64,000 bases of DNA from assembly GCA_000934665.2 (NCBI GenBank), contig KZ538242.1, positions 1 to 64,000 on the forward strand, written 5' to 3'. Each line of letters opens with the position of its first letter. Position 1 is the first letter of the stretch. The notes under the pieces are model-generated. The model made no database searches. It was not told where the DNA came from and was given only the letters and a program-made list of their open reading frames with translations. Source of the DNA: Catajapyx aquilonaris (taxonomy: Eukaryota). Below are positions 167-61,908 of this stretch, piece by piece. A program made the position numbers and the translations under genes.

Positions 167-1827
167 GGGAGATGTTATAGAGACTTGGAGGCAGAGACAG
201 CCAAGAACATAAGTGAAATTGCTGCCCTTGTCGGCAATGTTGATTCAGAGGCTACCTCATCTGATAATGCAGTCCTTCAACAAGTTCATTCCTGTGGGAT
301 TCAAGGATTGTACCTGGTGCAAGAGGAAACACTGAAGCAGGAGACTGGCATGGAGAGTGAATCATGGAGCCAGGTATGGTCATTACTTGACTACGTGAGG
401 GGGTTAGGAACGGAAAGTGGCTTGTGCCGAGAAAACACCACTTTTCGGTTTCGATTTGTATTTCTGCATATGTTATTCCCATGTTTCCTCCTCTTCTTAT
501 GGACCCAAGATAATGCAATTTGACCTGAGCATCTTTGGCTCATTTACCTGCAGGTTTTGATACCAGTGCATCATGTGGGAGAAATGCCTTATTTTATAGG
601 CAGCTTAATACAGCGAAACAGTCAGCCTTCAAACTTGATGATTATGTTTGGGCTTTTTATGAAATCACTGCTTTTGTCAGTAACCTCCCAATTTATGATC
701 CAGGGAAATTATGGGTAGTGCACACTCCCATTATATTATTACCAGTCTCCATTTATCTTGTGATTTTACTTCAGGCCTCTACTTCTGCAAGGTGGGAGAA
801 CACTGAGTCTGTCAAAGTTGAGGAGATTCCTTTAGATGCAAGGTTTTTACATTAGATCCGTTTACATGTGAGCGATTTGATCGTTCGATGTCATCGCCAA
901 GTGATGAATCCAATCTTTTGGGGTGAAAGTTACAATCACGGTATCAGTCGTAACTCGGGTGACTCAGCAATGATGTACGCTCACCTTTATAATTTAGTAC
1001 ATGGCCATCATAATAGAGTAAAGATGAGGAACCAGTTTGCTGAAAGTGATGTGAGCTGATGTGAACAAGAATTTATTCACTAAAAGTCTTATTGAATATT
1101 GCAGGTTGATGAAACAGAAAAGGTTGAAGTCATTGACCTGACCTTGCATGAGAATGACTCCAGGGATGGATGTGCACCATCCGCTCCCTCAGCTGATGAG
1201 GTTGGTTGTGGCTCTGAAACAGATAGTCCAAATGACATTGATGGCTGCTCTTCTCATGGGACTTCTGGTGCTTTGGATACAGTGAAAGGAAAGGAGATTC
1301 CAGGCAAGAAATGGCATCAGTGTGATCTATGCTCATACAAGACTCAAAAGAATTGGTCATTCAACAGGCATAAAATTGTTCACACAAATGATAAAAAGCC
1401 TTTTGGTTGCACTGCCTGTGAAAAAAGATTTACATCCAACCGCAACATGCAGTTGCATTATCAGGGAGTCCATCTTGGCCTTACTACTTTTTCTTGTGGC
1501 GTATGTTATAGGAAATATCGAGATAAGGAGAAATTGGAGGAGCACAAGATGACCCATGCCGGCAGGAAGCAGCATTCATGCATAGTATGCAAACAGTCCT
1601 TTACGCTACCTAAACATTTGAATTATCACATGAAACTTCACACTGGGGAAAGAAAGTTGCACTGTTGCACCCTTTGTGGCAAAGGGTTCAAGTGCAAATA
1701 TGAGTTGGTTGAACATTTTAGAGTCCACACTGGTGAGAAGCCTTATTGTTGTGACATATGCCAATGGAAGTTTGCTCGTCGTAGTCACTTAATTCGCCAC
1801 AAGAAAACCCACTCATGTTCAAGGTAG
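167..1827 (+). CDS. C2H2 zinc-finger protein, 3' part (head upstream of the window or absent); exons ~167-373, 775-837, 1105-1827; 6 fingers
   Basis: ORF 1099-1827 has six CxxC..HxxxH fingers and a TGEKP linker. Upstream exons have AG acceptors in phase 0. The donor after 837 is degenerate. Confidence 0.85.
855..986. mobile_element. MITE (CGTTTACATGTGAGCGATTTG family), degenerate
   Basis: It interrupts the paralog-conserved cacatta|taatttagc with TTA on both sides. Its left end is shared with the elements at 33917 and 46389. Confidence 0.55.
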
Positions 1828-2081
1828 TAGAGTTGCACCTTGTGTAATCACTTAACGTTTGATTCAGTGAGTCTGTGAGAAATATCCAGTAGTGTCCTTC
1901 ACTGCTCTTTCCAGTGCTAAGGGTACTAATAACTGACCATGTTTGGAAATAAATTTCTGACGTGTGAGCACTGATTTAAAAAAAATAAAAGATTTTAAAC
2001 CCCCTTTTTAACCAGATTAGGGTTTATAGTGGGGTGGATTACCACCATTTAGAATAATTATTCCATTTTTATTCCGTCACC

Positions 2082-2250
2082 ATGCAAGGACTTCAGGATG
2101 TGCGGTAGGGACAGGGTAGGGGTGCAGGTTAGGTTGCCGGACACCTGCAAGGTGCGGGCCAGAGACACTCCCGCGACGCAGGTGAAAGGAAAGTTCCCCA
2201 GGCATGGATCGACCCTGGGGCCTCTCATTCAGCAAACCGAGCCTTTACCA
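2082..2250 (-). mobile_element. tRNA-derived SINE fragment
   Basis: Homologous to 29014-29260 (gacgcaggtgaaaggaaagttccccagg...gatcga). Confidence 0.6.
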
Positions 2251-2652: not shown

Positions 2653-5600
2653 ATGTCTCCAGTCACCCTGGAGTCTCTGATGGAAGTGTCTCTAGGCAAC
2701 AGGAGGATTCTGGAAGGGTTGATGTCACGAATGGACTGGTGCCAGGAGGCCATCGGGAGGGTGGAGGGGTGGATGAAGAAGAAGAAGAAGAAGGGAGGGA
2801 GGGATGAACCAGCAGATACACAAAGCTGCGGACAAGGTGAAGCACAACCATGTTATTCCGAACATTATGTAAGGGTGTGCATCGGATATTAATGCGTCTT
2901 GCGTTCCAGAAGTTGCTTCAGGCCAGTCCCTTCCCATCGAGTTTGTTTCTATGGACACTGGAGATGCAGGTAGCGAGTCAATGCCTGCGTGTGACATTGA
3001 GGAGGAAATAAAAGTGGAGGAAGAGGAATGGGAAGAGGAGCAGGTGAGGACAAGGGTAGGACATGAAGGATCATGTCCTGATGGACTCCGGCTCAAAGTT
3101 GTAATTGGTTTTTGATTCACCTTCGTCTATAAATCCTGCTATAGCCTACTAGCATAGCATTGCTGTCCATCGACACTGGTAAGCATAACCACACAATTTA
3201 AGTCAGCACTAAATTACGACATTTTGGACTCCACTTGTAAATAGCATGATTACTTGTACTTTAAAATGTTGAGTAGAAATTGATGCAGGACAATAAAAAC
3301 TAGAAATATTCATTCAAGAATTTTTGCCCCATTGTGCTCTATGGGAGATCTGACTGTCATGTAATTCAATCACTGGTTATGCAGCAAGTGTTTATTGGGT
3401 ACACTTGATTGGAAACATTGTTTGTAATAAGGTCCTGGGATAGTTAAAAAAATATATTTTAAAGCGCCTGTTACTGCCAGTAACTTGGTTAGTCAATTGA
3501 ATTAATTGTTGTTCTTTTTTAGGACAGATGTTGTAGAGACTTGGAAGCAGAGGCAGTCATAAACATCAGTGAAATTGCTGCCCTTGTTGGCAATGCTGAT
3601 TCAGAAGCTACATCATGTGATCTTCCAGTCATTGGAGGAGTTCATTCCTGTGGGATTCAGGAATCGCACCTGCTTCAAGAGGGAACAGTGAAGCAAGAGA
3701 CGGGGACGGAGAATGAGTCATGGAGCCAGGTACGGTGTGTTTACTTGATTACTGGAGGATTTGGAAGCCATTAGAAGTCAGATTGACCCAACCTCATTCT
3801 GAGAAAATGGAACTTCTCTAGCTTTCATTTGTATGTTATGGTACCAATAAGATGACTCCTTTCGACCAATGTCTTTGTCTGATTAAGCGTGCCATTACTT
3901 GAAGATTTTAATGTCCATGACAGCTCTAAAGCAATGACAATTGAAGACAGCCATGTTTGACAATCACCTCCTCACTTGATTGTGCAGTGTTTGTGTAATG
4001 TACATTTCACATTTCACAGTGAATATTTTGTCGAATGCTCCATATATCTGGAGATCTTTGTTGATAATGTTGTCCGGGAATGCTCCCAAAATTGTTAACA
4101 ATAGTTTTAATGACAAATGATTTAGGGCCTGTTTCACCAAGCCCGGTTTTCATAAAAACCCCTGTTCTTTCGGAAAATCCCTATTCTATTTGCAGGGATT
4201 TTCCGAAAGAACCGCGGTTTTTATGAAAACCTGGCTTGGTGAAACCGGGCCTTATGATTGTTTCCATGAGACAAACTCTGCTGTAAACAAAGTCAAACAT
4301 GTAACTGAAGAATGAATAAGGCAATCATTATACAGGGTGGTTGGTAAATGGCGCCCAATCTTCAGGTAGCGAGATTCCTTGTGAAAAACCAGTATATGGA
4401 AGTGAAGGTCCTATTGCTCTACCATCTACAAATCTCCTTTTCTCTGTAATTTTACTTCAGGCCTCTACTTCCGCCTCTACTTCCTGGGAGAACACTGGGT
4501 CCATCAAAGTTGGGGAGATTCCATTAGAGGCGAGTGTTTCACATTATTTTTGAGCACATGAGCCGGTGTTTGCTGCAACTGATGTGAATAGAACTTATGT
4601 GAACAAGAGCAGGAATATATTCTCTAGAAGTCCTATTTAATATTGCAGGTTGATGAAACAGAAACGGTTGAAGTTGGTGACCTGACCTTGCGTTTGAATG
4701 TCTCCACCGATGAACATGCTCCATCTGCTCACTCAGCTGGTGATCCTGGTTGTGGCTCAAGTCGGAACAAAAACCAAAGGCGACAAAGGAAGGTATGTTT
4801 CTCTTGGTGTTAGGCCAAAACTAAGTGTCCAGTTGCCAAAATTTGGCAAAAGTTAAAGTGGTTAGTGTGGTAAATGCAGCTGGGAGTGGTAGGAAGGGGA
4901 GCAACATCTTACGCCAAAGGGGTAAAGTGCAGACTCTTAGCAAGGAGGTGACGCCCTGAGCTTGCCTGAGCGGCGTTATTGGGAATTAAGTGGAACAGGA
5001 GTTGGTTTTTTTGGGGTTTCCATCTTTTTTTTGTTGAAAAGGCCACAGATTTCTCAAAATGCTATTGTTCTTGATCACAACTTTTGATCAACTTAAAACC
5101 TGGAATGTTCATTCCCGCCTGCATTACTTATAGCGCAAGAAACTAATGCAGCCAACTGAAACAGAGAGTCCCAATGACACTGATGGCTTCTCTGCTGAGT
5201 ACCAGCAGGGCACTTCTGGTGCTTTGGATACAGTGAAAAGAAAGGAGACGCCAGGAAAGAAATGGCGTCAGTGTGATCAATGCTCATATAAGACTCAGGA
5301 CAAAAGTAACTTCAGCAGGCATAAAATTGTTCACAGAAGTCATGAAAAGCCTTTTGGTTGCACTGGCTGCGGAAAGAGATTTAAGACAAACAGCACCTTG
5401 CAGTTGCATTATCAGGGAGTCCATCTTGGTGTGAAGCCTTTCTCTTGTGACATGTGTGATAGGAAGTTTAATAGGAGGTGGACTTTGGAGGAGCACAAGA
5501 TGACCCACACTGGCAAGAGGCAGCATTCATGTGAAGTGTGCAAGAAATCCTTTACTCTAGCTAGGAAATTGAAGTCTCACATGAAACTTCACACGGGAGA

Positions 5601-5769
5601 GAGAGAGTTACACTCTTGCTCTCAGTGTGGCCGAAAGTTTGAGCACAAATTTAGATTGGTTGCCCATATGAAGACACACACTGGTGAAAAGCTGTTCTGT
5701 TGTGACATATGCCAGAAGAAGTTTTCTCTTCTTAGTTATGTTATTCGTCACAAGAAATCCCACGCATAA
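2653..5769 (+). CDS. Complete head + six-finger C2H2 ZNF gene; exons 2653-2836, 2874-3043, 3523-3729, 4461-4529, 4649-4792, 5134-5769 (~469 aa)
   Basis: Exon lengths 184+170+207+69+144+636 = 1410 nt join in frame without stops. Introns are GT-AG except a GC donor at 4530. Intron 1 is only 37 nt. Confidence 0.85.
4125..4251. mobile_element. Palindromic MITE, PIF/Harbinger-like
   Basis: TIRs gggcctgtttcaccaag / cttggtgaaaccgggcc, an almost fully hairpin body, and TTA flanks. Confidence 0.8.
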
Positions 5770-6622
5770 TCAAGGCCACAGAGTTGCGCTATGTGCCGTA
5801 ACACATTTTCAGCCTTGTTTTGAAATATCACATGCTAATGCATGCTGGTGTCAAGTCATTTCATTGCAACTTGTGTCAGAAAATGTCTTGGGATTCCTTT
5901 GTATTATTGAGATCATTCAAATGATGTTATTTTGATATCTGGTTGAACCTAACCATGTTTCTTCCTCAACGTGGATCCAAAGTTACAATAAAAAGCAGGA
6001 AGAGTGAAAAAAAAACTTAAGATTTACATATTTGAACATTTTGAACCTATAAATGTGTCCATTAGCAACTAATCATACATCACGTCCTATACCTGCACTT
6101 ATCTTGCAGTGAAACCAACTGTTTCCTCCTTCAAGCGCCATGTGTAGAGGTCATAATATGCAGCCGTGAACAGTACATGACTGGCAGGGAGGAACAGAAG
6201 GGTAATTTCACTGCATGGTAAGCTTGGTAGAATGTAATTTTAATTACAGGTGACATGAAGATAACAAGTGACTACACTTTCATACTGAAACTGTAGAATT
6301 CATATGTACATTCTTAAAATTTAAAGTCAGTGAGCAATTGAGCACATGGCCCTCGTAAAACTGGTCTCCCCTGTCAAAACTTTGGTGCATTTGGTTTCTA
6401 TCTTCTGCCATGGTTCATTCTGTTTGACGGGAGAATTTTTTGCCATTCTATTGTAATTTTTTCAGCCCACCTTTCGTTCCTGCAACGCATAAATGTACTG
6501 TATGTGTAGGGCAATTTCTGATATTTCATTGTTTATTTTTTGTGTAATCAGTTATAAAAGAAGATTAAAAGTCCTGCAGTAACCTTGTTAGGCAATTGAA
6601 TAAAATTAATTCTTATTTTTAG

Positions 6623-7630
6623 GGGAGCTGCTATAGAGATTTGGAGGCAGAGACATCCAAAAACATCAGTGAAATTGCTGCCCCTGTCGGCAATGCAGAT
6701 TCAGAAGCTACATCACCTGACCTTCCAGTCATTGGAGAAGTTTTTTCTTGTGGGATTCAAGGATTGCAAGAGGGAACAGTGAAGCAGGAGATGGGCATGG
6801 AGAATGAGTTATGGAGCCAGGTATGGTCATTGCTTGATTACTTCAGGAGGTGTAAGCAAAAATGTACTTTTATCGTAGCTTCTTGGCCTAAACCTCATTC
6901 TGAAAATATGCCACTTTTTGTGAGTTGCGATTAGCTGCGAAAGTGATTTGAATGCTCATTCCCACCTACATTACTTTTGAATTCTTTGTAGCACAAGAAA
7001 CTACCGCAGCCAACAGAAACAGATGGTCCAACCAACACTGATGGCTTCTCTGTTCTGTACCATGGGAATCCTGGTGGTTTGGAAATGGTGGAGATGCCAG
7101 GAAGGAAATGGCATCAATGTGGTAGATGCTCATATAAGACTGAATACATTTCTAACTTCAACAGGCATAAAATTGTTCACAGAAGTGGTGAAAAGCCTCA
7201 TGGTTGCACTGCTTGTGAAAAGCGATTTACATCAAGGCACTCCTTGCAATCGCATTATAAGGCTGTCCATCTTGGTTTTAAGGCTTTCTCTTGTGAAGTG
7301 TGCGATAGGAAGTTTCGCGAGAAGAGGCAGTGGGAGAACCACAAGATGACCCACACCGGCATGAAGCCGCTTTCCTGTCAAGTGTGCAAAAAATCATTTC
7401 CTCGTGCTAGACTATTGAAGCATCACATGCAATTTCACACTGGAGAAAGAGAGTTACACTCTTGCTCCATTTGTGACAAATGGTTCGAGTTCAATTCTGA
7501 TTTGGTCACACATGTGAGGGTCCACACTGGTGAGAAGCCTTATTGTTGCGACATATGCCAGAAGAAGTACGCTCATCGTTCCAGCTTAAATAATCACAAG
7601 AAGAAAGATCACTCTGGCGCAAGGTCCTAA
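6623..7630 (+). CDS. Headless C2H2 ZNF cassette; exons 6623-6820 and 6992-7630; 6 intact fingers
   Basis: Both exons are open and have phase-0 acceptors. There is no promoter block or head exon between 5769 and 6623. Confidence 0.75.
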
Positions 7631-8134
7631 GAGATGCACCATGCGGTATAAAACATTTGCGGCCTTACCTGTTTGAAAATGCCAGATGTTAATACACACT
7701 GGTGTTAAAACCATTTCAGTGCAACACGTGTCAGAAAATGTCTTTTTGCAGTTCATTCCTGAACAAACATGTAAAAGTGATTCACCAGAGAAAAGAAGCA
7801 GTTGTACCATTTTTAAAGAAGGCAGAGGGTGAAAAAAAAACGTGCCCTCCACTTGGTAGTGCAAAGAGTACTGAATAACTGACTGTATATATTAGGAAAT
7901 AAATTGCTGTTGGGTGAACATTAATGACAATGAAAACACAGACAGGAATAACAATGAAGTCTTATTTCGGACCGAAGCTACAACTCGACTGTCTTGGATG
8001 ACAGCTAATCCAGAACTTATTACAACATTCCAAACTAACTCTGCTTCTAATATTCAAAACATCAACAGTTTGGTTGACTAGGTAACAGTCAACCATCCCA
8101 GTGCCAGGACACTGCCGTTCTTATTTTTTTAAAG

Positions 8135-9323
8135 GGAAGCTGAAATAGGAACATGGAAGCAGAGACAATCAAAAACATGGGTGAAATTTCTGGCCTTGTT
8201 GGCAATGTTGATTCAAAAGCTTCTGCATCCTGGGAGACCACTGGGTCCGCCAAAGTTGAGGGGATTCCATTAGAGGCAAGTGTTTTTCACATTATGATTT
8301 AGCACATGGTCCTCATAAAGGAGTAAAGATGCGGAAACAATTTTCTGTAAGTGATGTGAATAGAACTGATCAGAAGAAGGGCAGATTCACTAATAGTTCT
8401 TGCATATTGCAGGTTGATGAAACAGAAGAGAAGGTAATCGATGACCTGACCGTGTGTTCGAATGACTCCAGCGATGATCATTCCCCATCTGCTCCCTCAG
8501 CTGGTGATCCTCTTCGTGAATCAAGTCGGGGAAAAAACCAAAGGCCACAAAGAAAGGTACGTTTGTCTTAGTGTTAGTGTTAAGTAAATCAGAGGCCAAA
8601 CCCAACTTATTAAAAATCAGGCGCTTTTGCCGATTGACTTTAACATCAACTCCCATTGCCCCACCTGTACTACTATTCAATTCATTGCAGCACAAGAAAC
8701 TACTGCAGCCAACCACAACAGATAGTCCAAATGACACTGATGGCTTCTCTGATCAGAACCATGGGACTTCTGGTGCTTTGGATACAGTGAAGGGAAAGGC
8801 GATGCCGGCGAAATGGCACCAGTGCGATCTATGCTCCTATAAGACTCAAAACAGTAGAAACTTCAACAAGCATGAAACTGGTCACAGAAGTCATGAAAAG
8901 CCTTTCGGTTGCGCTGCTTGTGAGAAACGATTTATGACAAACCGCTACATGTGGTTGCATTATCAGGCTGTACATCGTGGTGATGCTTCTTTTTCTTGTG
9001 AAGTGTGCCATAAGAAGTTTAGCGAGAAGAGGAATTTGGAGGAGCACAAATTGACCCACACTGGCAGGAAGCAGCATTCATGTCAAGTGTGCAAGAAATC
9101 CTACACGCTAGCTAGGCACCTGAAGTATCACATGCAAATTCACACCGGAGAAAGAGAGCTAGACTCTTGCACCCACTGTGGCAAAGGGTTTGAGCGCAGA
9201 TGTCACCTGATTGTACATGTGAGGGTCCACACTGGTGAGAAGCCCTATTGTTGCGACATTTGCCAGAGGAAGTTTGCTTATCGCTCTACCTTTCTTCAAC
9301 ACAAGAAAACCCACTCGGGATAA
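8135..9323 (+). CDS. Headless C2H2 ZNF cassette or pseudogene; exons 8135-8275, 8413-8556, 8691-9323; 6 fingers
   Basis: The finger exon is intact. The first exon has TGG>TGA at its third codon, followed by an in-frame ATG at 8153. No head lies upstream. Confidence 0.65.
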
Positions 9324-9648: not shown

Positions 9649-9672
9649 NNNNNNNNNNNNNNNNNNNNNNNN
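9649..9672. other. Assembly gap (24 N) within a poly-C tract
   Basis: A run of N flanked by C homopolymers. Confidence 0.95.
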
Positions 9673-10061: not shown

Positions 10062-12058
10062 ATGTCTCCAGTCACCCTGGAGTCTCTGATGGAAGTGTCT
10101 CTAGGCAACAGGAGGCTTCTGGAAGGATTGATGTCACGAATGGACTGGTGCCAGGAGGCCATCGGGAGGGTGGAAGGGTGGATGAAGAACAGAGGGAAGG
10201 AAGGTACGCATGACGCATATGAACAAGGGTGTGCGTCGGATATCAATGCGTCTTGCATTCCAGAAGTTGCTTCAGGCCAGCTGCTTCCCACCGAGTTTGT
10301 TTCTGTCAACACTGGAGATGCAGGCTGCGAGTCAATGCCTGCAAACATTGAAGAGGACATAAAAGTGGAGGAAGAGGACTGGGCATCGCAGCAGGTGGGG
10401 CCGGATCAAGTGCCGATAGCGCCTGAAAATAAAAAGTGCCTCTAATCTTCTTCGTCAATTGAATAAAATTGTGTTCTTATTTATTTAGGAGAGCTGGAAC
10501 AGAGACTTTGAAGCAGAGACAGCCAAAAACATCAGTGAAATTGCTGCACTTGTCGGGAATGTTGATTCAGAAGTTGGACGTTCAGTAGGTATGACACATT
10601 CTTTACTGTCGCACCTGCATGTTAGAAGGCGCGTAGGACTACTGGAAATGAAACCATGCTTTAATATGTTCCGATTAGTGTTGTTAATTATTCTTCTAAT
10701 AAGTTTCATAATATGCTGAGCATGAACCGTTCCCAAAAGTTGGGAAGTATCATTTGGACCAAACAGTCAGAGGTGGTCAGAGCAATTTTGGGTTAATGTG
10801 TGGAGTCAAACTGGATGCTCTTAAATGATCCGCTCTGTGTGCCACCTGAATCAGCCATTTTTCTGTGTTCATTTGCAGGTGGAGCGGCTTCCTCACTTTC
10901 TGCAGCCTTGGAGAACACCGAATCCGTCAAACTTGAGGAGATTCCATTAGAGGTAAGTGTTTCACGTTACAATTTAGCTGGTGGCAAAAGAGTCACGGTG
11001 AGAAAGCAGTTTGCTATTAGTGATGTGAATAGGACTGATGAAAACAAGTGCAGGGACAGATTCACTAATAGTTCTATTGAATATTGCAGGTTGATGACAC
11101 AGAAAAGGAAGAAATCGGTGACCTGATCTTGCATGTGAATGACTCCAGCAATGAACATGCCCCATCTGACCACTCAGCTGGTGATCCTGGTTGTGGCTCA
11201 AGTCAGAAAATCAACCAAAGGCAACAAAGGAAGGTATGCTTCTCATTGTGTTAAGCGAATCTAGACCTAACCTAATTGATGGAAAAGAAGGGTTTTATGC
11301 CATAGCATGAACTTAACATGAATCTAAACGTGAACAGCATTGGTGTAATATCACACCTTTCACCAGAATAAATGACTGCACTGACACCTCCATTACTTTT
11401 GGATTTCTTGTAGCACAAGAAACGAATGCAGCCCACTGACACAGAGAGTTCAAATGACTCTGCTGAATACCAGGGCACTTCTGGTTCTTCGGATACGGTG
11501 AAAGAAAAGGAGATGCCAGGAAAGAAATGGCTTCAGTGTGATCAATGCTCATATAAGACTCGAGACAATAGTAACTTCAGAAGGCATAAAATTGTTCACA
11601 GAAATGACGAAAAGGCTTACTGTTGCACTGCCTGTGGAAAGAGATTTACGTCCAACCGCAACATGCAGTTGCATTATCAGACTGTCCATCTGGGTGTTGC
11701 CCCTTTCTCTCGTGAAGCGTGTGATACTGAGAGGAAGTTTAGTGAGAAGAGGAATTTGGAGGAGCACAAGACGACCCACGCTGGCAAGAAGCAGCATTCA
11801 TGTGAGGTGTGCAAAAAATCATTCATTCTAGCTAGGCAATTAAAGTGTCACATGCAACTTCACACTGGACAACGAGAGGTACACACTTGCTTCTATTGCG
11901 GCAAAGAATTTAACTACAAATGTCACATGGTTGAACATTTGAGGGTCCACACTGGTGAGAAGCCACATCGCTGTGACATATGCCAGAGGAAGTTTGCTCA
12001 TCGTTCCACCTTAAATAATCACAAGAAAACGCACAAAGGAGTGACCACTGCTACTTGA
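10062..12058 (+). CDS. Head + C2H2 ZNF gene; exons 10062-10394, 10489-10588, 10879-10952, 11090-11233, 11414-12058
   Basis: The exons join in frame. Finger 3 is damaged (FSREACDTERKF: first Cys lost plus a 2-aa insertion). Confidence 0.82.
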
Positions 12059-12408
12059 AAATATTCTTACGTATAGTGCAGTACTGTACTACTGATCTTA
12101 ACATATGCCCCAAATTTGGTGTATGAATAAAAGGGAAGGAGTAGTCCTTATTATTAAGGCATTTTCACTTCTTCAATTGTCCGCAATTCCAAGGCTAATG
12201 CTATCGGTCCGGTCCGTTCCCTGTCTGGCATGGCCACGCAGGAGACGCAGACAGCGAGTCATTGCCTGCGTGTGACATTGAAACAGAAATAAAAGTGGAG
12301 GAAGAGGACTGGGGAATGGAGCAGGTGAGGACAGGACGGGACGCAGGGTCAAGTGCTGAAAGGCTAAAATTTAAAAGGGCCTGTCACTTTGTTAGTCAAT
12401 CAAATTAA

Positions 12409-12852
12409 CACTTAATCACCAGCGTGAATCTGCCATACATTGGCTACGACGTGGGATCTTTACCACGCAGTTTTAATTTGTTTAAATTTTTGAATTAATA
12501 GCACTAAAGCCATTCTTCCCCGCTAAATTCGGCCTGTATTTTCATCTGTATGTGTAAAAAAAAATCGATCTCCTGCGACCAATTGCTGTGATGTGCTGTG
12601 CTGTGTTTTCTAAAAAAATTATGCGCATTGGCTACGACATGGGGTATATCTGGACCCCACAGGGACGCTTAGCAGCAGAAAAGTACCGGTAACTCTCCCA
12701 AAAAAAAAAATCTACTGATGTCAAAATTTTTCACTGGATCGAAGAAAGTATGTCTGAGGAATAAAGGCCTGCCATTTTTCATTTCATGCCAAATTTATTA
12801 ATCGCGATGGTATTACCTGCTTTGTGGGGGCCAAAAAGTTGGTGATTAAGTG
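12409..12852. mobile_element. Non-autonomous piggyBac-like element
   Basis: TIR cacttaatcacca / tggtgattaagtg with TTAA on both sides. The empty site is visible in the paralog at ~3493. Confidence 0.8.
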
Positions 12853-12875
12853 TTAATTGTGTTCTTATTTTTCAG

Positions 12876-13958
12876 GGGAGCTGGACCCGACACCTGGAAG
12901 CAGAGACAGCCAAAAACATGAGTGAAATTGCTGCCCTTGTCGGCAATGTTCATTCAGAAGATGGACGCTCAGGAGGTGTGGCGCATTCTTTAATGTCCCA
13001 CGTGCATGTTAGAAGGGAGGCAGGCTAATTGGATTTAAAACCATGCATTAATATGTGCCAATAGCAGTGTTATTAATTAACCTTTTAATAAGATTCATAA
13101 AATTTGCTAAGCAGCAGCTTTGGCAAAAGTTGGGAAGTGTCATTAGAACCAAGCAGGAATAAACTGTCAGAGGTGGTCAGAGTAGTTTAGGGTTAATCAG
13201 TGGAGTCAAACTGGATGCTCCTAACTGATCCGCATTTTGTGCCATCTGAATCAGCCATTTATATGTGTGACCTTCCAGGTGGAGCAGCTTCCTCACCTTC
13301 TGCAACTTGGGAAAACACTGATTCCATCAAACTTGAGGAGATTCCATTAGAGGCAAGTGTTTCACACTATAATTTAGCACCTTGCCCTTGGAATGGTGCT
13401 TTGGAAATGGTGAAAGGAAAGGAGATGCCAGGAAAGAAATGGTACCAGTGTGATCTGTGCTCATATAAGACTCAAGACAGATCAAACTTCAGCAGGCATA
13501 AAATTGATCACAGGAGTGATGGAAAGCCTTTCGGTTGCACTGGTTGCGACAAGAGATTTATGACGAACCAACGCTTGCAGTTGCATTACCAGGGAGTCCA
13601 TCTTGGTATTAAGCATTATTCTTGTGAAGTGTGTGATACGAAATTTTGTGATAAGTGGATATTGGAGGACCACAAGATGATCCACACTGGCAAGAAGCAG
13701 CATTCATGTCAAGTGTGCAACAAATCTTTTACTCTACCTAAACATTTGAATTATCACATGAAACTTCACACCGGGGAAAGAGAGCTACACCCTTGCTCCA
13801 TTTGCGGCAAAGAGTTCGTATGCAAATCTCAATTGGTTATTCATATGAGGATTCACACTGGCGAGAAGCCGTATTGTTGTGACATATGCCAGAGAAAATT
13901 TGCTCAAAGTTCCAGTTTAATTGATCACAAGACAACCCACATAGGAGCAAGGTCGTAG
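12876..13958 (+). CDS. Headless C2H2 ZNF cassette; exons ~12876-12975 and 13279-13958, preceded by a partial exon 2 at ~12230-12324
   Basis: ORF 13200-13958 has six intact fingers. There is no promoter block or exon 1 between 12058 and 12230. Confidence 0.75.
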
Positions 13959-28902: not shown

Positions 28903-29013
28903 GTACCAAAAGCTGCTCACGTCACCTAATCTTATTCCTAGAAAACACATCTCATCAGTTTCAATTTGTGTGAGCTGCAAATGTGATTCCCAGATTTCAA
29001 CTTCAATCTCCGG

Positions 29014-48900: not shown

Positions 48901-49072
48901 AGAAAGAGAGTTACACAGTTGCACTCATTGTGGGAAAAAATATGAGCACAAATACAACTGGCTTTACCATATGAGGACTCACACTGGTGAGAAGCCCTTT
49001 TGTTGCGACATTTGCCAGAAGAAGTTTGCTCGTCTGGATGACTTAACCGAGCACAGGAAATCCCATACATAA
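45914..49072 (+). CDS. Complete ZNF gene with a divergent head (MSPVTLESLMEVSLRNERLLECLVSRMDWCQEAIWRLQVWM) and 6 fingers
   Basis: Intron 1 is a ~47-nt GT-AG intron. Linker exons and terminal exon 48440-49072 are open and in phase. Confidence 0.82.
46389..46554. mobile_element. MITE (GGTGCGTTTACATGTGAGCGATTTGAC family)
   Basis: TIRs aggtgctttcacgtacgagcgatttgac / gtcaaatcgctcacatgtaaacgcacct. Duplicated at 50862-51028. Confidence 0.75.
46617..46730. mobile_element. Palindromic MITE
   Basis: TIR gggtggtattttcgt / acgaaaattccaccc with ATA duplication. An identical copy is at 51088-51201. Confidence 0.75.
47506..47662. mobile_element. MITE
   Basis: TIR gagtgcgtttacatgggact / agtcccatgtaaacgtactc with CAT duplication. 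The empty site gggtactccatgtctg is at ~51915 and ~57450. Confidence 0.85.
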
Positions 49073-50398: not shown

Positions 50399-53300
50399 AT
50401 GTCTCCAGTCACCCTGGAGTCTCTGATGGAAGTCTCTCTAGGCAACAGGAGGCTTCTGGAAGGATTGATGTCACGGATGGACTGGTGCCAGGAGGCCATC
50501 TGGAGGCTGCAGGTTTGGATGAACGGAGCTGGAGATGGAAGTGACGGAGCAAGTACTCAAGGTGAAGCATGAGCGTTTCCGTGATCACTTTGTAAGGGTG
50601 TGCATCGGATATTAATGCGTCTTGCATTTTCAGAAGTTGCTTCAGGCCAGTCCCTTCCCACCGAGTCTGTTTCTGTCAACACTGGAGATGCAGGCAGCGA
50701 GTCAATGCCTGCGTGTGACATTGAAATAAAAGTGGAGGAAGAGGATTGGGAAGAGGAGCAGGTCAGGACACGATCAAGTGCAATTTTGCAATTCAAACTC
50801 CCAACATTTGGAATCAGATGTTTTACTTTTTATTATTGTGGCTGACTACTGGCGTGTTTGAAGGTGCTTTCACGTACGAGCGATTTGACGAACGAAGCAG
50901 ATCAAAATCGTCGCCGAGGCTGGAATTGGCAATCAGTGTTCGCCTCAAACAATATTGGTTGTAAACTTGGGTTACTCAGCCTCGGCGAAGATCTCGCTGG
51001 TCAAATCGCTCACATGTAAAACGCACCTATAGCAATTACTGGATTTGCGTTAAAGATGTTGATGATAAATTGATACAGAAATATATAGGGTGGTATTTTC
51101 GTACCACTGATAGGTACTGCTAACTTACAGTTAGTAGTACCAGTGTTGGCCATGGCACTGATAAGTTAGCAGTAACTATCAGTGAGACGAAAATTCCACC
51201 CATAAATTTTAGGCATTAAATTAATGAAGGTTTATGGGAGATGTGAGTGTCACGTAATGAATCACTGCTCATGGGGCATTAGCTTATGGGGACACATGAT
51301 TGGAAACACAGTTTTCAATTTGGGACTTGGAGAGTTAGCAAAAAAAAATTAATGGTGCCAATGACTAGTCGATTGAATAAAATGTGTTCTTATTTTTTTT
51401 AGGAGAGCTGGAACAGAGACTTTGAAGCAGAGACAGACATAAACATCAGTGAAATTGCTGCCCTTGTCGGCAATGTTGATTCAGACGCTACCTCACCTGA
51501 TCTTCCAGCCATTGAAGAAGTTCATTCCCGTGGGATTCAAGAATTCCACCTGCTTCAAGAGCCAATGTTGCAAGAGGAGTTGGGTAGGGAGAGTGAGTCA
51601 TTGAAACAGGTACAGTCATTATTCTTGATTATATTTGAGAAAATGCCACTTTCCTGTTTCGATTAGTGTAACTGCAAATGTGATTCCCAGATGTCCTCCT
51701 CTTGTTATGGTAACTCATTTACTCATTTTGACCGATGACTTTGGCTCATTAGGAGGAAATCGCTGCGGTAAACATATTCAAGTGCATAATATTGTAGAAT
51801 GAAACATTTACGAATCATTATGCAGTCAGCCTGCAAACTTTATGATTATATTTTGGATTTTGATGGACCCACCACCTTTGTCAGTTAATTGCCAGTGTGT
51901 GACAGTTAAATTATGGGTACTCCATGTCTGATTTTATTATTACCTGGTCTTCATTTATCTGTTATTTCACTTCAGGCCTCCACTTCTTCAACTTGGGAGA
52001 ACACTGAGTCTGTCAATGTTGAGAAGATTCCATTAGAGGTAAGTTTTGCACAAGATGATTTCGCACATGGCCCTCGTAAAAGAGGAAAGAGAAAGAAGCT
52101 GTTTGCTGTGAGTGATCTGAATAGAACTGATGAGAACAACATCAGATTCACTACAAGTCTATTAAATATTGCAGATTGATGAAACAAAAAAGACTGAAAT
52201 TGGTGACCTGATCTTGCCTGTGAATGACTCAAGCAAAGAATGTGCTCCATCTGCTCAATCGGCTGATGATCCTGGTTGTGGCTCAAGTCGGGGAAAAAAC
52301 CAACCTCGAAAAAGGAGGGTATGTTTGTCTTAGTGTTAGCGAATCAGGGCCAAACCTGACTGCTGGAACTGTAGGTTGTTTTGGCAGTTAACTTAAACTG
52401 AATACTTAACATGAATCTTAACATGAACAGTACTGGTGCAACTGAAACTGACATACACGTATGAAAGGGCAGGTCTCTCTCGTCCACTTTTCAGTAAAAT
52501 CACCATACAAATTGATTCACTTTGGGGCATATAATTTTCCATGCCACTGCAGAAGAGAGCATCAGGCTGTATCTTTCTGTGGTGAATCTTTGGAATTTAA
52601 ACAGTTGTGCATTACTTTTTGATTCCTCCTCCTATTAAAGATTTGGTAGAATTTGTTTCTAACTTTGTTTTATGACAGGGCACAGATTGCTCGTGCATTT
52701 GTCCTTAATCACAACAATTTGGATTGCTCATTTCCGCCTGCATTACTTTTGAATTCTTTATAGCGCAAGCAACTGTTGCAGCCAACTGAAACAGATAGTC
52801 CGGTTGACACTGATGGCTTCTTTGCTGAGCACGAGGGGACTTCTGGTGCTTTGCAAATGGTGAAGGGAAAGAAGGTGCCAGGAAAGAAATGGCATCAGTG
52901 TGATCTATGCTCATATAAGACGAAAAACAGTGCGTCATTCAAAAGCCATGAAATTGTTCACAGAAGTGGTGGAAAGCCTTACCGTTGCGCTGCTTGTGAA
53001 AAACGATATATGTCAAAGTACTCCTTGCAATCGCATTATGAGGTTGTCCATCTTGATGTAGCTCCTTTCAGTTGTGAAGTGTGTGATAGGAAGTTTAAAG
53101 AAAGGAGGAGACTTGAGGAGCACAAGATGACCCACGCTGGCAAGAAGCAGCATTCGTGTCAAATGTGCAAAAAATCCTATACTCTAGCTAGGCATCTGAA
53201 GTATCACATGCAATATCACACCGGAGAAAGAGAGTTACACCCTTGCTCCATTTGTGGCAAAGGGTTTGTGTCCAAATCTAAACTGGGTGATCATGTGAGG

Positions 53301-53444
53301 AGTCACACTGGGGAGAAGCGGTATTGTTGCGACATTTGCCAGAAGAAGTTTGCTCGTCTGGATTACTTCACCCACCACAAGAAATCCACACATAAGCAAT
53401 GTCCTGGAGTTCTCCCGTGTCTGATCAAACATTTGCTGCCTTAA
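50399..53444 (+). CDS. Complete ZNF gene with a chimeric head and 6 fingers
   Basis: Intron 1 is 35 nt. The exon-5 donor is GT at 52039. The terminal exon corresponds to ORF 52776-53444. Confidence 0.8.
50862..51028. mobile_element. MITE, duplicate of 46389-46554
   Basis: Near-identical sequence at the same intron position. Confidence 0.75.
51088..51201. mobile_element. MITE, duplicate of 46617-46730
   Basis: Identical sequence at the same intron position. Confidence 0.75.
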
Positions 53445-54501: not shown

Positions 54502-57500
54502 ATGTCTCCAGTCACCCTGGAGTCTCTGATGGAAGTCTCTCTAGGCAACAGGAGGCTTCTGGAAGGGTTGATGTCACGAATGGACTGGTGCCAGGAGGCC
54601 ATCGGGAGGGTGGAAGGGTGGATGAAGAAGGAGAAGAAGCGTGGAAGGGAAGGTACGCATGAAGGAGGAACAAGGGCGTGTGGATCGGATATCAATGTGT
54701 CTTGCATTCCAGAAGGTGCTGCAGGCCAGTCCCTTCCCACCGAGTTTGTGTCTGTCGACACTGGAGACGCAGTCGGCGAGTCAATGCCTGCCTGTAACAT
54801 TGAAGAGGACATAAAAGCGGAGGAAGAGGATTGGGGAGCGGAGGAGGTGAGGTCAGCCGGGGATGCAGGTTTAGGTCCTGATAAACTGAAATCGAAAGTG
54901 TTTCAACTGTGTTAATCAATTGAATAAAATTTGTTCTTGCTTTTTAGGTGAGATGTTATAGAGACTTGGAGGCAGAGAAAGCCAAAAATTTCAGTGAAAT
55001 TGCGGCGCTTGTTGGCAATGTTGATTCAGAAGTTGGACATTCAGCAGGTATGACACATTCCTTAACGTCTTACATGCATGTTAGAAGGTATGTAGGCCTA
55101 CCGGAATGAAAACTATGCATTAATCAGTGCCAATTACAGTGTTGTTAATAATCCTATGAATAAGTTTCATATTTTGCTGGGCATGAACCTTGTCCTGAAT
55201 TAACTAGGAAGTATCATCTGGACCAAGCAGGAATATACAGTCCGAGGTGTTCAGAGCTGTTTAGGGTTCATCTTTACCCCCTTTTGGAGTCAAACTGGAT
55301 ATGCGTAACTGACCCCCTTCTGTGTGCCATCTGACTTCCATTTTTCTGTTTGCACTTGCAGGTGGAGATGATTCCTCACCTGATCTTCCAATCAATGAAG
55401 AATTTCATTCGTATGGGACTCAAGAGCTTCAACAGTGGGCATTGAAGCAGGCAACGGGCACGGAGAGTGAGTCATGGCCTCAGGTATGGTCATTTCTTGT
55501 TTACTTGAGGAAATGGAAGCCCAAATTGGCTCACTTCAGCTAATCTTATTCCGAGCAAATGCATTCTATTCAGTTTCGATTTGTACAGCTGCTAATGCGA
55601 TTCTTGGATTTCCTCCTATTGTTATGGTACTGCATTTCTGACTATATGATTATGAATATCCATCTTTCTGGGATTTTTCCTCAGGTCTCCACTTCTGCAA
55701 CCTGGGAGAACGCTGAGTCCACCAAAGTTGAGGAGATTCCATTAGAGGCTAGTGTTTCACATTATGATTTAACACTTGGTCATCGTAAAGGAGTAAAGAG
55801 GAGGAATCAGTTTGCAGGAAGTGATGTGAATGTAACTTATGAGAAGAAGAGCAGATTCACTAATAGTCCTATTGAATATTTCAGGTTGATGAAACAGGAA
55901 AGGTTCAAGTCATTGACCTGACTTTGTGTGTGAATGACTCCAGGGATGAACATGTCCCATTTTTTCACTCAGCTGGTGATCCTGGTTGTGGATCAAGTCG
56001 GGAAAAAAACCAAAGGCCACAAAGGAAGGTATGTTTCTCATGGTGTTAAGTGAATCAGGGACCAAACCCAACTGCTTATGTGCCAACAAAGCTTAAGTGA
56101 CGTAGGGACACGTGATTCATCCCAATGAGTCACCACAGTTGGAAAAGTGCACTGGAGTGGAACTTCCCGACAAATACTGGAAAAGAGAGCGCCTATATTA
56201 AGAAGCGGATAACGGCGCTCTCTTGCACTCTCATCCGATGATGGGGCTATCCGGAGCCTGTCAGGTCGGATTGTAGAAATTGCAGTCAAGAAATTAAAAG
56301 GAACTAGGAAAACCCTCACTGCTCGCATTTTCCTAGGGCGCTGGCCTAGAAAACCACTCTCTTCGCTCGCTCTTTTCTAGGCCTGCGGCCTGCAGTGCCC
56401 ACCATATTTTCAATCGCTTCGGACTTATATTGCCAGTGATGATGCCCACCCGTTCCTCTGTGCATTCACATATCTGTGATTCCCTATCCTGCGACCAATC
56501 TGCAATCCCTCCTTTGCATTGGCTGGGAAATATACATTTTCCCATCGCAACATACCCGTACCTTTGCAATTTTGAAAAACCCAAATTTATTATTGTATGA
56601 ACAGAAATCCACAACCTCTACCGCCTCTACTCGCATGCACTCGCACATGTATCTAAATAATTATATGCACCCTTTCGGACCACATTTTTCTAACTGCTCA
56701 TAACTTCCCTTTATAAACAGCCAATGGAACTTGGCAGTGCCTGTATTAGATCAGTGGTTCCCAACCTGGGGGTCGCGAAGCCTTCTCCGTGGGGGTCGAG
56801 GGTGGCCGTGATTATTTTAATTCTATTCTCAGTTGTCAAGGATATTGCTATCTAATGAAGCATTTGAGACACTTCCCCCTTTCCTCTTCGCTGGTCGTAA
56901 AACCGCAAAATGAGATATTCCGATGTTTTAAATGTACTACTGTATACATATTCTGCTTTAAATAATATTTCATCGAAATTAGAAAATAATTCCCTAGATT
57001 TTTAGTGACCAGGTACTGACCCTTAGATTTTTAGTTTGTCTTCCGAAAAAAGTCTGTTATAATCTTTGTATGCGAGAAAAACTAACTTTTTTCGGACTTT
57101 GCTTTGTTTTAGCCATGCACAGACAATCTGCACCATGATAATCGGGAGTAGAGTGTAATGCCAGAGGGAACAGAACAAAATGTATTCGTGAAAGTAGTCA
57201 CCCGTTGCATTATCCCATGCACTTGAAAAATATCTAATCTACTTTCCCAATGGAACAATGGCCGAACTCCAAAATACAAATTTCGGCCCCTGCTTTGCAT
57301 GTGGGTCCTGGGGAGTGAAAATCGCAGGATAGGAGGCGATGGCGATTTCAGGCTTCTACCCTTTACTTCCGCATGTGTCCCTCAAATGGTTTACAAATTT
57401 AATCACCACCTGTGTCAGTTAACTCCCAGTGTATGACAGTTAAATTATGGGTACTCCATGTCTGATTTTATTATTACCGGTCTTCATTTATCTGTTATTT

Positions 57501-57982
57501 CGCTTCAGGCCTCCACTTTATCAACTTGGGAGACCACTGACTCTGTCAATGTTGAGAAGATCCCTTCAGAGGCAAGTGTTTCACATTATAATTTAGCACA
57601 TGGCCCTCGCAAAAGAGTAAAGAGAAAGAAGCTCTTTGCTGGAAGTCCTTTCTCTTGTGAAGTGTGTGATCGGAAGTTTTATAGGAAGAGATATTTGGAG
57701 GAGCACATGATGACCCACACTGTCAAGAAGCAGCATTCATGTGAAGCGTGTAAAAAATCCTTTACTCTACCCAGACATTTGAAGTATCACATGCAAATTC
57801 ACACCGGAGAAAGAGAGTTACACATTTGCTCCATTTGTGGCAAAGGGTCCGTGTCCAACTCTAAATTGGTTGAACATGTGAGGACTCACACTGGTGAGAA
57901 GCCCTTTTGTTGCGACATTTGCCAGAAGAAGTTTGCTCGTCGGGATGACTTAATAACCCACCACAAGAAATCCCACACATAA
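54502..57982 (+). CDS. Rearranged ZNF unit: head and linker exons, a ~1.3-kb foreign insertion, then a second exon 5 fused in frame to fingers 3-6 only
   Basis: ORFs 54403-54915 and 57458-57982. The junction gctctttgctggaagt|cctttctcttgtgaa joins intron sequence to finger 3. Confidence 0.6.
56095..57395. mobile_element. Composite foreign insertion, including a hAT-like end (CAGTGGTTCCCAACCTGGGG at 56752)
   Basis: Not homologous to any unit. It has short inverted ends agggacacgtg / catgtgtccct and no clear target-site duplication. Confidence 0.45.
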
Positions 57983-58739: not shown

Positions 58740-61700
58740 ATGTCTCCAGTCACCCTGGAGTCTCTGATGGAAGTGTCTCTAGGCAACAGGAGGCTTCTGG
58801 AAGGATTGATGTCACGAATGGACTGGTGCCAGGAGGCCATCGGGAGGGTGGAGGGGTGGATGAAGAACAGAGGGAAGGAAGGTACGCATGACGCATATGA
58901 ACAAGGGTGTGCGTCTGATATTAATGTGTCTTGCATTCCAGAAGTTGCTTCAGGCCAGTCTCTTCCCACCGAGTTTGTTTCCGTCAACATTGAAGATGCA
59001 GGCAGCGAGTCATTGCCTGCGTGTAACATTGAAGAGGACATAAAAGTGGAGGAAGAGGATTGGAGAGCGGAAAAGGTGAGCACAGTGGGATGCAGGATTA
59101 GATGCTGATAAACTGAAATCAAAAGTGTTTTTTACCTTGTTAATCAATTGAATAAAATTTGTTCTTATTTATTTAGGGGAGATGTTATAGAGACTTGGAG
59201 GCAGAGACAGCCAAACGCATCAGTGAAATTGTTGCACTTGTTGGCAATGTTGATTCAGAAGGTGGACATTCAGCAGGTTTGACACATTCCTTAATGTCTT
59301 ACATGCATGTTAGAAGGAATGTAGGCCGACTGGAATTAAAACTATTCATTAATCTGTGCCAATTAGTATTGTTACCGTATTACCTCACATAAAGCAGGAT
59401 GCTGGTGTTGCTGAGGTCAACCAGGTTTTATAAATGCGCGATCTGGTGGCTATACCAGCATGCCGGTATAAGGTCAGGTTTTCACATAAGTTACATTGAC
59501 CTCGGTTCACACTCGCTGATGGTAGCACACAAAACGAACGAAACAGTACTGCGGACCAACTGTACTAGAAGCATTCCATTCAAAAATGACAAGGATCGAA
59601 ATTACGGAAATCTACCTCGGTTATTGCGGCATGCATGTGGGGTAATATGGTGATACTGAAGCACTGTATACAGAGGTGCATCAGATATTAATGCGTCTTG
59701 GATTTCGGGACTTGCTTCAGGCCAGTCCCTTCCCACCGAGTCTGTTTCTGTCAACACAAGAGGTGAAAGCAGCGAGTCAATGCCTGTGTGTAAGATTGAA
59801 GAGGATATAAAAGTGGAGGAAGAGGATAGGGGAGTGGAAAAGGTGCTTATAAACCGAAATCAAAAGTGACAGTAACCTTGTTAATCAATTGAATAAAATT
59901 TGTTCTTGCTTTTTAGAGGAGATGTTATAGAGACTTGGAGGCAGAGACAGCCAAAAACATCAGTGAAATTGCTGCGCATGTGAGCAATGTTGATTCAGAA
60001 GTTGGACATTCAGCAGGTATGACACATTCCTTAACGTCTTACATGCATGTTAGAAGGTATGTAGGCCTACCGGAATGAAAACTATGCATTAATCAGTGCC
60101 AATTACAGTGTTGTTAATAATCCTATGAATAAGTTTCATATTTTGCTGGGCATGAACCTTGTCCTGAATTAACTAGGAAGTTTCATCTGGACCAAGCAGG
60201 AATGTACTATCGGAGGTGTTCAGAGCAGTTTAGGTTTAATCTTTACCCCCTTTTGGAGTCAAACTGGATATGCGTAACAGACCCCCTTTTGTGGGCCATC
60301 TGACTTCCATTTTTCCGTTTGCACTTTCAGGTAGAGATGATTCCTCACCTGATCTTCCAGTCAATGAAGAATTTCATTTGTATGGGACTCAAGATCTTCA
60401 AGAGTGGACATTGAAGCGGACGACTGGCACGGAGAGTGAGTCATGGCCCCAGGTATGGTCATTTCTTGTTTACTTGTGGAAATGGAAGCAAAAATCGGCT
60501 CACTTCAGCTAATCTTATTCTGAGCAAATGCATTCTCTTCAGTTTCGATTTGTTAGCTGCTAATGCGATTCTTGGATTTCCTCCTATTGTTATGGTACTG
60601 CATTTCTGACTATATGATTATGAATATCCATCTTTCTGGGATTTTTCTTCAGGTCTCCACTTCTGCAACCTGGGAGAATGCTGAGTCCACCAAAGTTGAG
60701 GAGATTCCATTAGAGGCTAGTGTTTCACATTATGATTTAACACTTGGTCATCGTAAAAGAGTAAAGAGGAGGAATCAGTTTGGAAGAAGCGATGTGAATG
60801 GGACTTATGAGAAGAAGAGCAGATTCACTAATAGTCCTATTGAATATTTCAGGTCGATGAAACAGAAAAGTTTGAAGTCACTGACCTGACCTTGCGTGTG
60901 AATGACTCCAGTGATGAACATGTCCCATTTTTTCACTCAGCTGGTGATCCTGGTGGATCAAGTTGGGGAAAAACGCAAAGGCCACAAAGAAAGGTATGTT
61001 TCTCATGGTGTTAAGTGAATCAGGGACCAAACCCAACTGCTTATCTGCCAACAAAGCCCATAAGTGGCGTCTAAAACCGCCACTGTTTCTAGTCTTATAA
61101 AACGGCTGCACTGGCCCATAGATTCAATTTCATCGTGAGACTTGGGATTGATACCTGCATGTCTCCCTGAATGGTTCACTTTCATGTGCCATGTGACCTA
61201 CTTTATAACAATTAGCTCCCACAAAAGCCGTTCTCACCTACATTACTTTTGAATTCTTTGTAGTGCCAGCAACTAATGCAGCCCTCTGACCCAGAGAGTT
61301 CAAATGACACTGATGGCTTCTCTGCTGAGCACCAGGGGACTTCTGGTGCTTTGGGTACAGCTAAAGGTAAGGAGATGCCAGGAAATAAATGGCATCAGTG
61401 TGATCTATGCTCATATAAGACTCAAGACAGCGGACACTTGAAAAGGCATCAAATTAGTCACAGAAGTAGTGAAAAGCCTTTTGGTTGCACTGCTTGTGAA
61501 AAGAGATTTTCATCTAAGCAATACATGCAGTTGCATTATCAGGCTGTCCATCTTGGTGTTGCTCCTTTTTCTTGTGAAGTGTGCGATAAGAAGTATTTTG
61601 AGAAGAAGAAATTGGAAAAGCACAAGGCGACCCACACTGGCAAGAAGAAACTGCCATGTGGACTGTGTGAAAAATCCTTTACTCTGACTAGACATTTGCA

Positions 61701-61908
61701 GTATCACAGGCAACTTCACACCGGAGAAAGAGAGTTACACTTTTGTACTCAATGTGGCAGAGGGTTCGGCTACAAATCTCACTTGGTTGAACATGTGAGG
61801 ACTCACACTGGTGAGAAGCCGTATTCTTGTGACATTTGCCAGATGAAGTTTGCTCAACGTGGTACCTTAACTCAGCACAAGAGAACCCACACAGGAGCAA
61901 GGTCATAG
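58740..61908 (+). CDS. Head + six-finger ZNF gene with an internal duplication of exons 2-3 (second copy ~59675-60017)
   Basis: ORF 58740-59108, two copies of the DLEAETAK exon (~59178 and ~59918), and an intact terminal exon 61264-61908. Confidence 0.78.

Follow-up and report, generated by a model that had tools for sequence, protein, structure and literature searches.

The first 64,000 nucleotides of contig KZ538242.1 of Catajapyx aquilonaris (assembly GCA_000934665.2), the stretch analyzed here and called the window, contain 16 C2H2 zinc-finger arrays in tandem, arranged head to tail on the + strand between 1321 and 61908. We found that the DNA-contact residues of these arrays change at rates far above those of the framework that carries them, and the view that their rates exceed 1 is well supported, although not beyond doubt. 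Most of the arrays belong to multi-exon genes that share a short coiled-coil head at the front. All gene models, which are listed below with the other features of the window, are predictions from the DNA sequence.

1321-1827, + strand: W01, six-finger C2H2 array; its front exon presumably lies past the contig start
2653-5769, + strand: W02 gene model; coiled-coil head exon from 2653, linker exons, six-finger array 5272-5769
7118-7630, + strand: W03, six-finger array in a unit without head exon, exon 2 or promoter motif
8823-9323, + strand: W04, six-finger array in a unit without head exon, exon 2 or promoter motif
10062-12058, + strand: W05 gene model; head from 10062, array 11537-12058 with finger 3 broken
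13449-13958, + strand: W06, six-finger array in a unit without head exon
14695-17784, + strand: W07 gene model; head from 14695, array 17275-17784
18981-21717, + strand: W08 gene model with seven exons; array 21220-21717, finger 6 lacking its last His
22050-22062, + strand: promoter motif CCAAGATGGCGAC, which we take to be YY1-like, some 170 bases before the start codon of the head; it precedes most heads
22226-25317, + strand: W09 reference gene model, 425 amino acids, in frame; exons 22226-22376, 22435-22568, 22663-22765, 23741-23862, 24247-24309 and 24613-25317
22226-22366, + strand: W09 head domain, a 47-residue heptad helix outside any catalogued family; its model is a parallel coiled coil of three helices
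22533-22556, + strand: psi-K-x-E with acidic tail (SUMO-type consensus), in exon 2
25809-26150, + strand: truncated cassette of head and exon 2; the next head is reached without a finger exon
28226-29770, + strand: finger-less cassette with a piggyBac-like C-terminal Cys-rich exon (29426-29770); predicted in-frame splice, 282 amino acids
30345-32649, + strand: W10 gene model; head from 30345, array 32140-32649
32988-35941, + strand: W11 gene model; head from 32988, array 35414-35941
36822-39293, + strand: finger-less cassette with a second piggyBac-like C-terminal exon (38988-39293); predicted in-frame splice, 323 amino acids
40821-44106, + strand: W12 gene model; head from 40821, array 43609-44106
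45914-49072, + strand: W13 gene model; head from 45914, array 48575-49072
50399-53444, + strand: W14 gene model; head from 50399, array 52899-53444
54502-57982, + strand: W15 gene model; head from 54502, array 57656-57982, rearranged, with fingers 3-6 alone
58740-61908, + strand: W16 gene model; head from 58740, array 61399-61908
63017-63548, + strand: head, exon 2 and exon 3 of a 17th gene with six fingers; its array is past the window end, at C433:65087-65701

The initial annotation had described a fixed six-finger scaffold with hypervariable contact residues, and most of that description stood. Its list of finger-6 residues at helix positions -1, +2, +3 and +6 was reproduced in all 16 arrays and in the same order, and its six examples of finger-5 codes were all recovered among the window arrays. 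Thirteen of the arrays have six intact fingers; the scaffold is not fixed in the other three, since W05 has lost the first Cys of finger 3, W08 has lost the last His of finger 6, and W15 consists of fingers 3-6 alone. The supposedly constant frameworks proved constant to different degrees, with CDICQ present in all 16 arrays, CSYKT in 15 and HTGERELH in 12, and the finger-4 pattern L.[KR]HL.YH fits 10 arrays and fails in 6. The number of distinct four-residue codes is highest in fingers 5 (16/16) and 6 (15/16) and lowest in finger 4 (8/16); fingers 1 (11/15), 2 (12/15) and 3 (14/16) are variable as well, below the level of fingers 5 and 6. The fingers are joined by TGEKP-type linkers and match zf-C2H2 and zf-H2C2_2 in Pfam above cut-off. 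Each array is built from six distinct finger units, and no tandem (minisatellite) repeat was found inside the arrays.

A search of the 285.6-Mb genome returned at least 147 array matches (the best 150 of 2989 candidates were scored). For comparative analysis we assembled 35 copies, namely the 16 window arrays and 19 of the closest matches elsewhere in the genome. A 12-finger frame was entered as two arrays, and two short arrays (C1793:31642, four fingers; C5491:5216, three fingers), one interrupted by a stop codon (C555) and the more distant subfamilies were omitted. These copies are about 78% identical in DNA, all 35 carry different contact codes, and they differ from one another at 69% of contact sites versus 31% of other sites. 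Because the copies stand in tandem on one contig at this level of identity, we ruled out that they are alleles or haplotigs. Outside the genome, array relatives reach at most 47% identity and are mostly vertebrate proteins with many zinc fingers (poly-ZF; best 120 of 195). The cluster is thus a tandem C2H2 (poly-ZF) lineage-specific expansion. The genome holds further large families of C2H2 frames with 10-18 fingers (L058-L077, among the 2989 candidates), and one single open frame elsewhere (L009:1595-2890, C5491, - strand) contains two six-finger arrays in tandem, by internal duplication or paralogue fusion.

Diversifying selection on the DNA-contact positions, as the initial annotation had proposed, was backed by all tests run. 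The codon models were written for this analysis and are of the GY94 type, with IQ-TREE branch lengths fixed up to a scale and naive empirical Bayes posteriors. On the 16 window arrays, site models that allow a ratio of nonsynonymous to synonymous rates (dN/dS) above 1 were strongly preferred (2dL = 53 for M8 over M8a, 65 for M2a over M1a), with about 9% of sites at dN/dS near 2.8. Ten sites had a posterior above 0.9, and six of these are contacts, although contacts make up only 24 of the 168 codons; with all 35 arrays the statistics rose to 121 and 173, and 9 of 12 confident sites were contacts. When site classes were set a priori, contacts had a dN/dS of 1.53 (p = 1.2e-4 against 1), other helix positions 0.88, structural positions 0.125 and the rest 0.45. 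The annotation had expected contact dN/dS to exceed that of other finger positions, and it does, at 1.53 against 0.45. Tying contacts to the other non-structural classes cost a likelihood ratio of 149.5, or 32.5 when synonymous rates were free. Finger by finger, from 1 to 6, the contact values are 1.24, 1.50, 1.13, 0.55, 2.57 and 2.60; a separate class for fingers 5 and 6 was suggested by the data, and the pooled contact value is therefore the fair test. That pooled value was 1.64 on 35 copies, 1.74 on nine complete window genes and 1.47 (likelihood ratio 22-24) when double-base mutations were allowed. Tree-free counts on 12 genes gave 1.42 for contacts, 1.83 for those of fingers 5-6 and 0.44 for non-contact positions. 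We are highly confident that positive selection on the contact residues is real.

Fingers are also exchanged between paralogues by recombination. Trees of fingers 1-3 and of fingers 4-6 reject each other (approximately unbiased [AU] test, p below 1e-54, 33 sequences), and a test resembling the pairwise homoplasy index (PHI) gave p = 0.003 over all sites of the 35 copies, and 0.08 and 0.36 on the 16 window copies. The array of W07 illustrates the process, its finger 6 being 98% identical in DNA to that of W16 and 73% to that of W14, whereas its finger 1 is 94% identical to that of W14. Between W07 and W16, finger 6 has two codon differences, of which one is at +6. When each finger pair was given its own tree, the contact values were 1.68 for finger 2, 1.78 for finger 3, 1.94 for finger 5 and 1.75 for finger 6, all significantly greater than 1 (p below 0.003). 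Simulated data in which contacts evolved neutrally and every finger had its own tree (37 simulations) never gave an estimate above 1.39 for fingers 5-6 or a likelihood ratio above 4.6, versus 2.50 and 35.7 in the real data.

The remainder of the gene follows a common plan, with the same exon series repeated in each unit and exon phases conserved. The reference gene W09 has six exons of compatible phase with GT-AG introns, including one of 58 bases, and one GC-AG intron; in most units, unlike W09, the last exon is divided in two. The donor after exon 5 (window 24310 and equivalents) reads GC in place of GT in most copies. Twelve finger genes have their own first (head) exon, and W03, W04 and W06 have none (units at window 5770-9323 and 12059-13958). 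The finger exons and splice sites of these three are intact and their non-contact dN/dS is 0.32, so they may be alternative 3' cassettes spliced from an upstream head, or may have lost their function only recently. Evolution of the acidic linker exons is close to neutral (dN/dS 0.87-1.24). Within exon 2, the psi-K-x-E motif is kept in 32 of 34 copies at a dN/dS of 0.16, versus 1.13 for the remainder of the exon, its three sites having been picked by motif after the sequences were in view; in exons 4 and 5, psi-K-x-E is conserved at background level (11/24 and 16/29). Synonymous divergence (dS) rises from 0.16-0.27 for the 5' exons to 0.37 for the finger exon, and the lower values at the front would be expected if gene conversion evens the front while divergent arrays persist. 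The window contains 25 N bases, at 9649-9672 and 18406, outside every modelled exon. A short insertion with inverted ends at 27571-27703 (starting GGGCCGTTTTCTCG and ending CGAGAAAACGGCCC), flanked by TTA, is probably a miniature inverted-repeat transposable element.

The head is the first exon, of about 45-47 residues in five heptads, and, like the psi-K-x-E motif of exon 2, it is under purifying selection; dN/dS of the head is 0.165 over 29 haplotypes. It matches at 91 places on 43 contigs genome-wide; among the 79 heads with surrounding DNA, a C2H2 array follows in 51 and is absent in 16, and 12 reach the sequence edge. Its predicted fold is a single helix (predicted local distance difference test [pLDDT] 94). 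Modelled in three copies, it forms a parallel, in-register coiled coil with a score of 0.75, against 0.01 for the best control, and the runs agree in at least 97% of contacts with pLDDT of at least 85; in calibration, 21 of 30 solved microbial pairs and none of 23 microbial single chains passed the score mark, and among eukaryote pairs 17 of 29 passed. Thus, the head is predicted to self-associate as a parallel coiled coil. The oligomer is probably a trimer, a number of chains that the three-copy model does not itself fix. Of 62 distinct head sequences, 29 contain the trimer motif R-h-x-x-h-E in its strict form, a number that rises to 56 when Q is accepted in place of E.

Searches for relatives of the head returned no homologue. 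In Pfam no family matched (best E = 0.07), and DUF3669 was absent from all 29 head sequences scanned. Among PDB sequences the best match had an E of 0.21, with GCN4 constructs at 0.4-0.6; Foldseek found no homologue among PDB structures, nor did a search of the ESM Atlas (best 0.84, with low recognition). A set of 5.8 billion sequences yielded none (four candidates, none of them scored), which is weak evidence, and 1.84 billion representatives yielded one match and no accepted homologue. That match (P0121), a tandem-repeat frame on an ENA contig, was rejected as spurious. No origin from a retrotransposon ORF1 was found by eye, the matches lying in frames of at most 260 amino acids. The head was not found in 20 stretches around the 10-18-finger genes, whose first exons possibly lie outside those stretches, and no account of it was found in the literature searched, supplements excepted.

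Several other loci with this exon deserve mention. At G000:C3166:13620-17714 (L021, - strand), four diverged head exons stand in tandem, 1.0-1.6 kb apart, beside a sugar-transporter gene; no finger array lies within the 10 kb examined, and head-only proteins are possible. A head subfamily ending in WAWCGGC (L018, L019, L031, L044, L045, L054, L055) carries an in-register 11-residue duplication containing RhxxhE. Just downstream of another head, on the opposite strand, is a broken retrotransposon lacking long terminal repeats (non-LTR; L023:4709-7644, C778, - strand) with endonuclease and reverse transcriptase frames. An uninterrupted, diverged frame for ribosomal protein S3, possibly a retrocopy, lies beside a family member at L027:323-1249 (C128, - strand). 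A ribosomal protein S3 frame on a contig other than that of the window is closest to animal chains, and a sugar transporter next to a family member finds its best matches, at about 41% identity, in insects and Daphnia; together with the 58-base introns, these point to an invertebrate, probably an arthropod.

The same front end is also found before transposase sequence. For the two finger-less cassettes listed above, the predicted splicing crosses GT-AG junctions and continues in frame into the C-terminal Cys-rich tails of two different piggyBac-like remnants, whose transposase identity is judged from weak matches (PF13843, E = 3.6e-4; piggyBac 6x67, E = 0.12). The transposase frame upstream of the 38988-39293 exon is interrupted by a stop. 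In total, a transposase DNA-binding exon follows the front end at four places on the contig, two of them the in-frame models of the window and two represented by nearby open frames just beyond it: one head is followed by a piggyBac-like tail and another (C433:71599) by a CENP-B/Tc5 helix-turn-helix frame. Two such CENP-B/Tc5 frames lie inside the cluster past the window (C433; L001:8804-9502 and L002:2685-3164), and the former is the one behind the head at C433:71599. In the cabbage-looper element the piggyBac C-terminal domain binds transposon ends (PMC5861402), and in tetrapod transposase captures KRAB is the usual partner (bioRxiv 10.1101/2020.05.07.082677).

We propose a model in which the contact codons of this tandem C2H2 family are positively selected and swapped so that its products would bind and silence different, fast-changing transposon sequences, and we hold this model and its negation about equally probable. 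Duplication would supply the copies; selection together with finger exchange would give each copy a new predicted specificity, mostly via fingers 5-6, with finger 4 more constrained; and the shared head would oligomerize and, together with the SUMO-type site, recruit silencing machinery. Self-association of the head, if it occurs as predicted, would allow different paralogues to join in one oligomer and so gain avidity for repeats. On whether transposons are the driver of the selection, our judgment is evenly divided. A transposon arms race, which the initial annotation had suggested as the cause, has circumstantial support from the transposase DNA-binding exons behind the same front end, and we infer expression, transposon targets, repression and SUMO use for the family by analogy with known systems. 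A bolder form of the model seems to us doubtful. It holds that an invertebrate lineage independently built a KRAB-ZNF-like system of transposon recognition, with a trimer-forming, SUMO-linked head on some 90 or more genes, retargeted by selection, finger swapping and repeated capture of transposase tails, and that mixed trimers would read combinations of repeats.

A number of observations weigh against this model. When each class was allowed its own synonymous rate, pooled contact dN/dS exceeded 1 with marginal significance (p = 0.042), and under F61 with free synonymous rates it was 1.35 with a likelihood ratio of 4.9; the signal is weakest here, at p of about 0.03-0.04. Under separate trees, no excess over 1 was found for finger 1 (p = 0.10) or finger 4 (p = 0.71). 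The high-rate sites include some non-contact positions, namely -2 and two residues between the finger-5 cysteines, the latter two vanishing with a local tree. As for the head, 16 of 67 informative copies run to the next head, or for up to 9 kb, without a finger array, and the window subfamily has Q in place of the E of the trimer motif. The score mark was calibrated on two-copy jobs, whereas the head was modelled in three copies, and of the 7 eukaryote pairs lacking an older solved relative, just 1 passed it. Many animal transcription factors carry psi-K-x-E motifs. The fusion exon at 38988 has two paralogues, both of them broken, and on C3658 this exon (93.7%) is no more conserved than the upstream transposase DNA (93.5%). 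Moreover, the ZAD-ZNFs of flies, the best-studied arthropod family, apparently do not target transposons (PMC10547256).

The same selection could have been driven by something other than transposons, such as satellites, heterochromatin, insulator sites or other fast-changing DNA or new regulatory sites, with the head a mere self-association module. All of the selection results are equally compatible with non-transposon targets of this kind, and we regard this as a substantial alternative, though not one that we favor. ZAD-ZNFs act in heterochromatin organization without transposon targeting (PMC10547256), the trimer-forming DUF3669 protein ZNF746 binds active promoters and not H3K9me3 regions (bioRxiv 10.1101/2025.03.01.640934), and the zinc-finger expansions of the milkweed bug and of aphids are reported not to follow repeat content (PMC6444547). 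On the other hand, positive selection was not found in fly and mosquito zinc-finger expansions (PMC2604467), unlike in the window family, and the transposase DNA-binding exons behind the same front end at four places on the contig also weigh against this alternative.

A different role, in which the fingers chase self-eroded sites as in PRDM9, or viral DNA or RNA, appears improbable to us. PRDM9 also shows rapid contact turnover and finger swapping, and the higher dS of the finger exon relative to the 5' exons would be expected if selection keeps divergent arrays apart. However, no SET or KRAB domain was seen in the 425-residue model (by eye, with Pfam scans of parts), the arrays consist of six distinct finger units instead of a minisatellite of near-identical repeats, and there are many paralogues, not one polymorphic locus. 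Least probable of all, in our view, is that the family consists of redundant or dying duplicates under relaxed constraint and that the dN/dS values above 1 arose artefactually, through gene conversion, double-base mutations or our own codon code. Recombination is indeed present, by the AU and PHI-like tests, 3 of the 16 arrays are damaged and 3 units are headless, branch lengths were fixed up to a scale, the posteriors are naive empirical Bayes, and significance falls when synonymous rates are free. Nonetheless, structural sites are at 0.12 and the framework at 0.45-0.5, and constraint has therefore not been lost; even the headless units retain a low non-contact dN/dS. The signal is also kept in complete genes, with double-base mutations, with local trees, without trees and against the mosaic nulls.

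Among known systems, the closest in outline are the KRAB-ZNFs of tetrapods, which likewise form clusters of recent paralogues with some gene conversion and a conserved short front domain on its own exon (PMC2604467), and in which positive selection is concentrated at helix positions -1, +3 and +6 (Emerson and Thomas 2009, PMC2604467). The window family differs in its fixed six-finger array, the bias of selection toward C-terminal fingers, its six or seven exons and its probable arthropod host, and scans of 29 heads and of front-end frames returned no match to KRAB (PF01352). The FiNZ-ZNFs of cyprinid fish share with it a lineage-restricted short N-terminal domain without known similarity, and selection in paralogue clades (PMC10547256). 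FiNZ, however, is a 28-residue, acidic, KRAB-like domain in two-exon genes, whereas the window head is a 45-residue heptad coiled coil in genes of six to seven exons, and judged on architecture the window family is not FiNZ-ZNF. Transposon repression has been demonstrated for FiNZ-ZNF (PMC10547256) and is a prediction for the window family.

Other likenesses are partial. The head recalls that of the DUF3669 KRAB-ZNFs, in which an N-terminal coiled coil with RhxxhE on a C2H2 protein forms a demonstrated trimer (bioRxiv 10.1101/2025.03.01.640934); here the coiled coil and its trimer are modelled, and the window subfamily has Q for E in the motif. That domain has ten heptads and occurs with KRAB, whereas the window head has five heptads, no KRAB and no LINE ORF1 origin that could be seen by eye. 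DUF3669 genes are also few and old, and the window family is large and young. Insect ZAD-ZNFs are likewise an arthropod C2H2 expansion (PMC10547256). They have an N-terminal self-association domain, which in our case is modelled. No Pfam match to ZAD (PF07776) was found, and the head is a single predicted helix. ZAD itself is a four-cysteine zinc-binding fold, and the window head is without such a pattern. The finger-less cassettes resemble host-transposase fusions of the KRABINER type, in which the front end of a zinc-finger gene is spliced to the DNA-binding part of a transposase (bioRxiv 10.1101/2020.05.07.082677); KRABINER has a mariner part, whereas the fusions of the window are predicted from DNA, have piggyBac tails and include a captured exon without sign of selection. 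Of the features of PRDM9, neither a PR/SET domain nor a minisatellite finger array was found. Clustered insect C2H2 expansions without an accessory domain are also on record (PMC6444547).

Taken together, this is a known kind of system, as in KRAB-ZNF and FiNZ-ZNF, with a new head. Positive selection of contact residues is well known in vertebrates and was not found in the fly and mosquito expansions (PMC2604467); outside fish and mammals, a role in transposon control rests on predictions (Wells et al. 2023, PMC10547256). One six-finger frame with 35 contact codes and one shared front end makes an unusually clean set for the question of transposon defence in invertebrates, and the finger-6 pair of W07 and W16 is a natural case for asking how specificity responds to the change of a single contact. 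Should the head prove to repress, it would join KRAB and FiNZ as a third independent invention of the KRAB kind.

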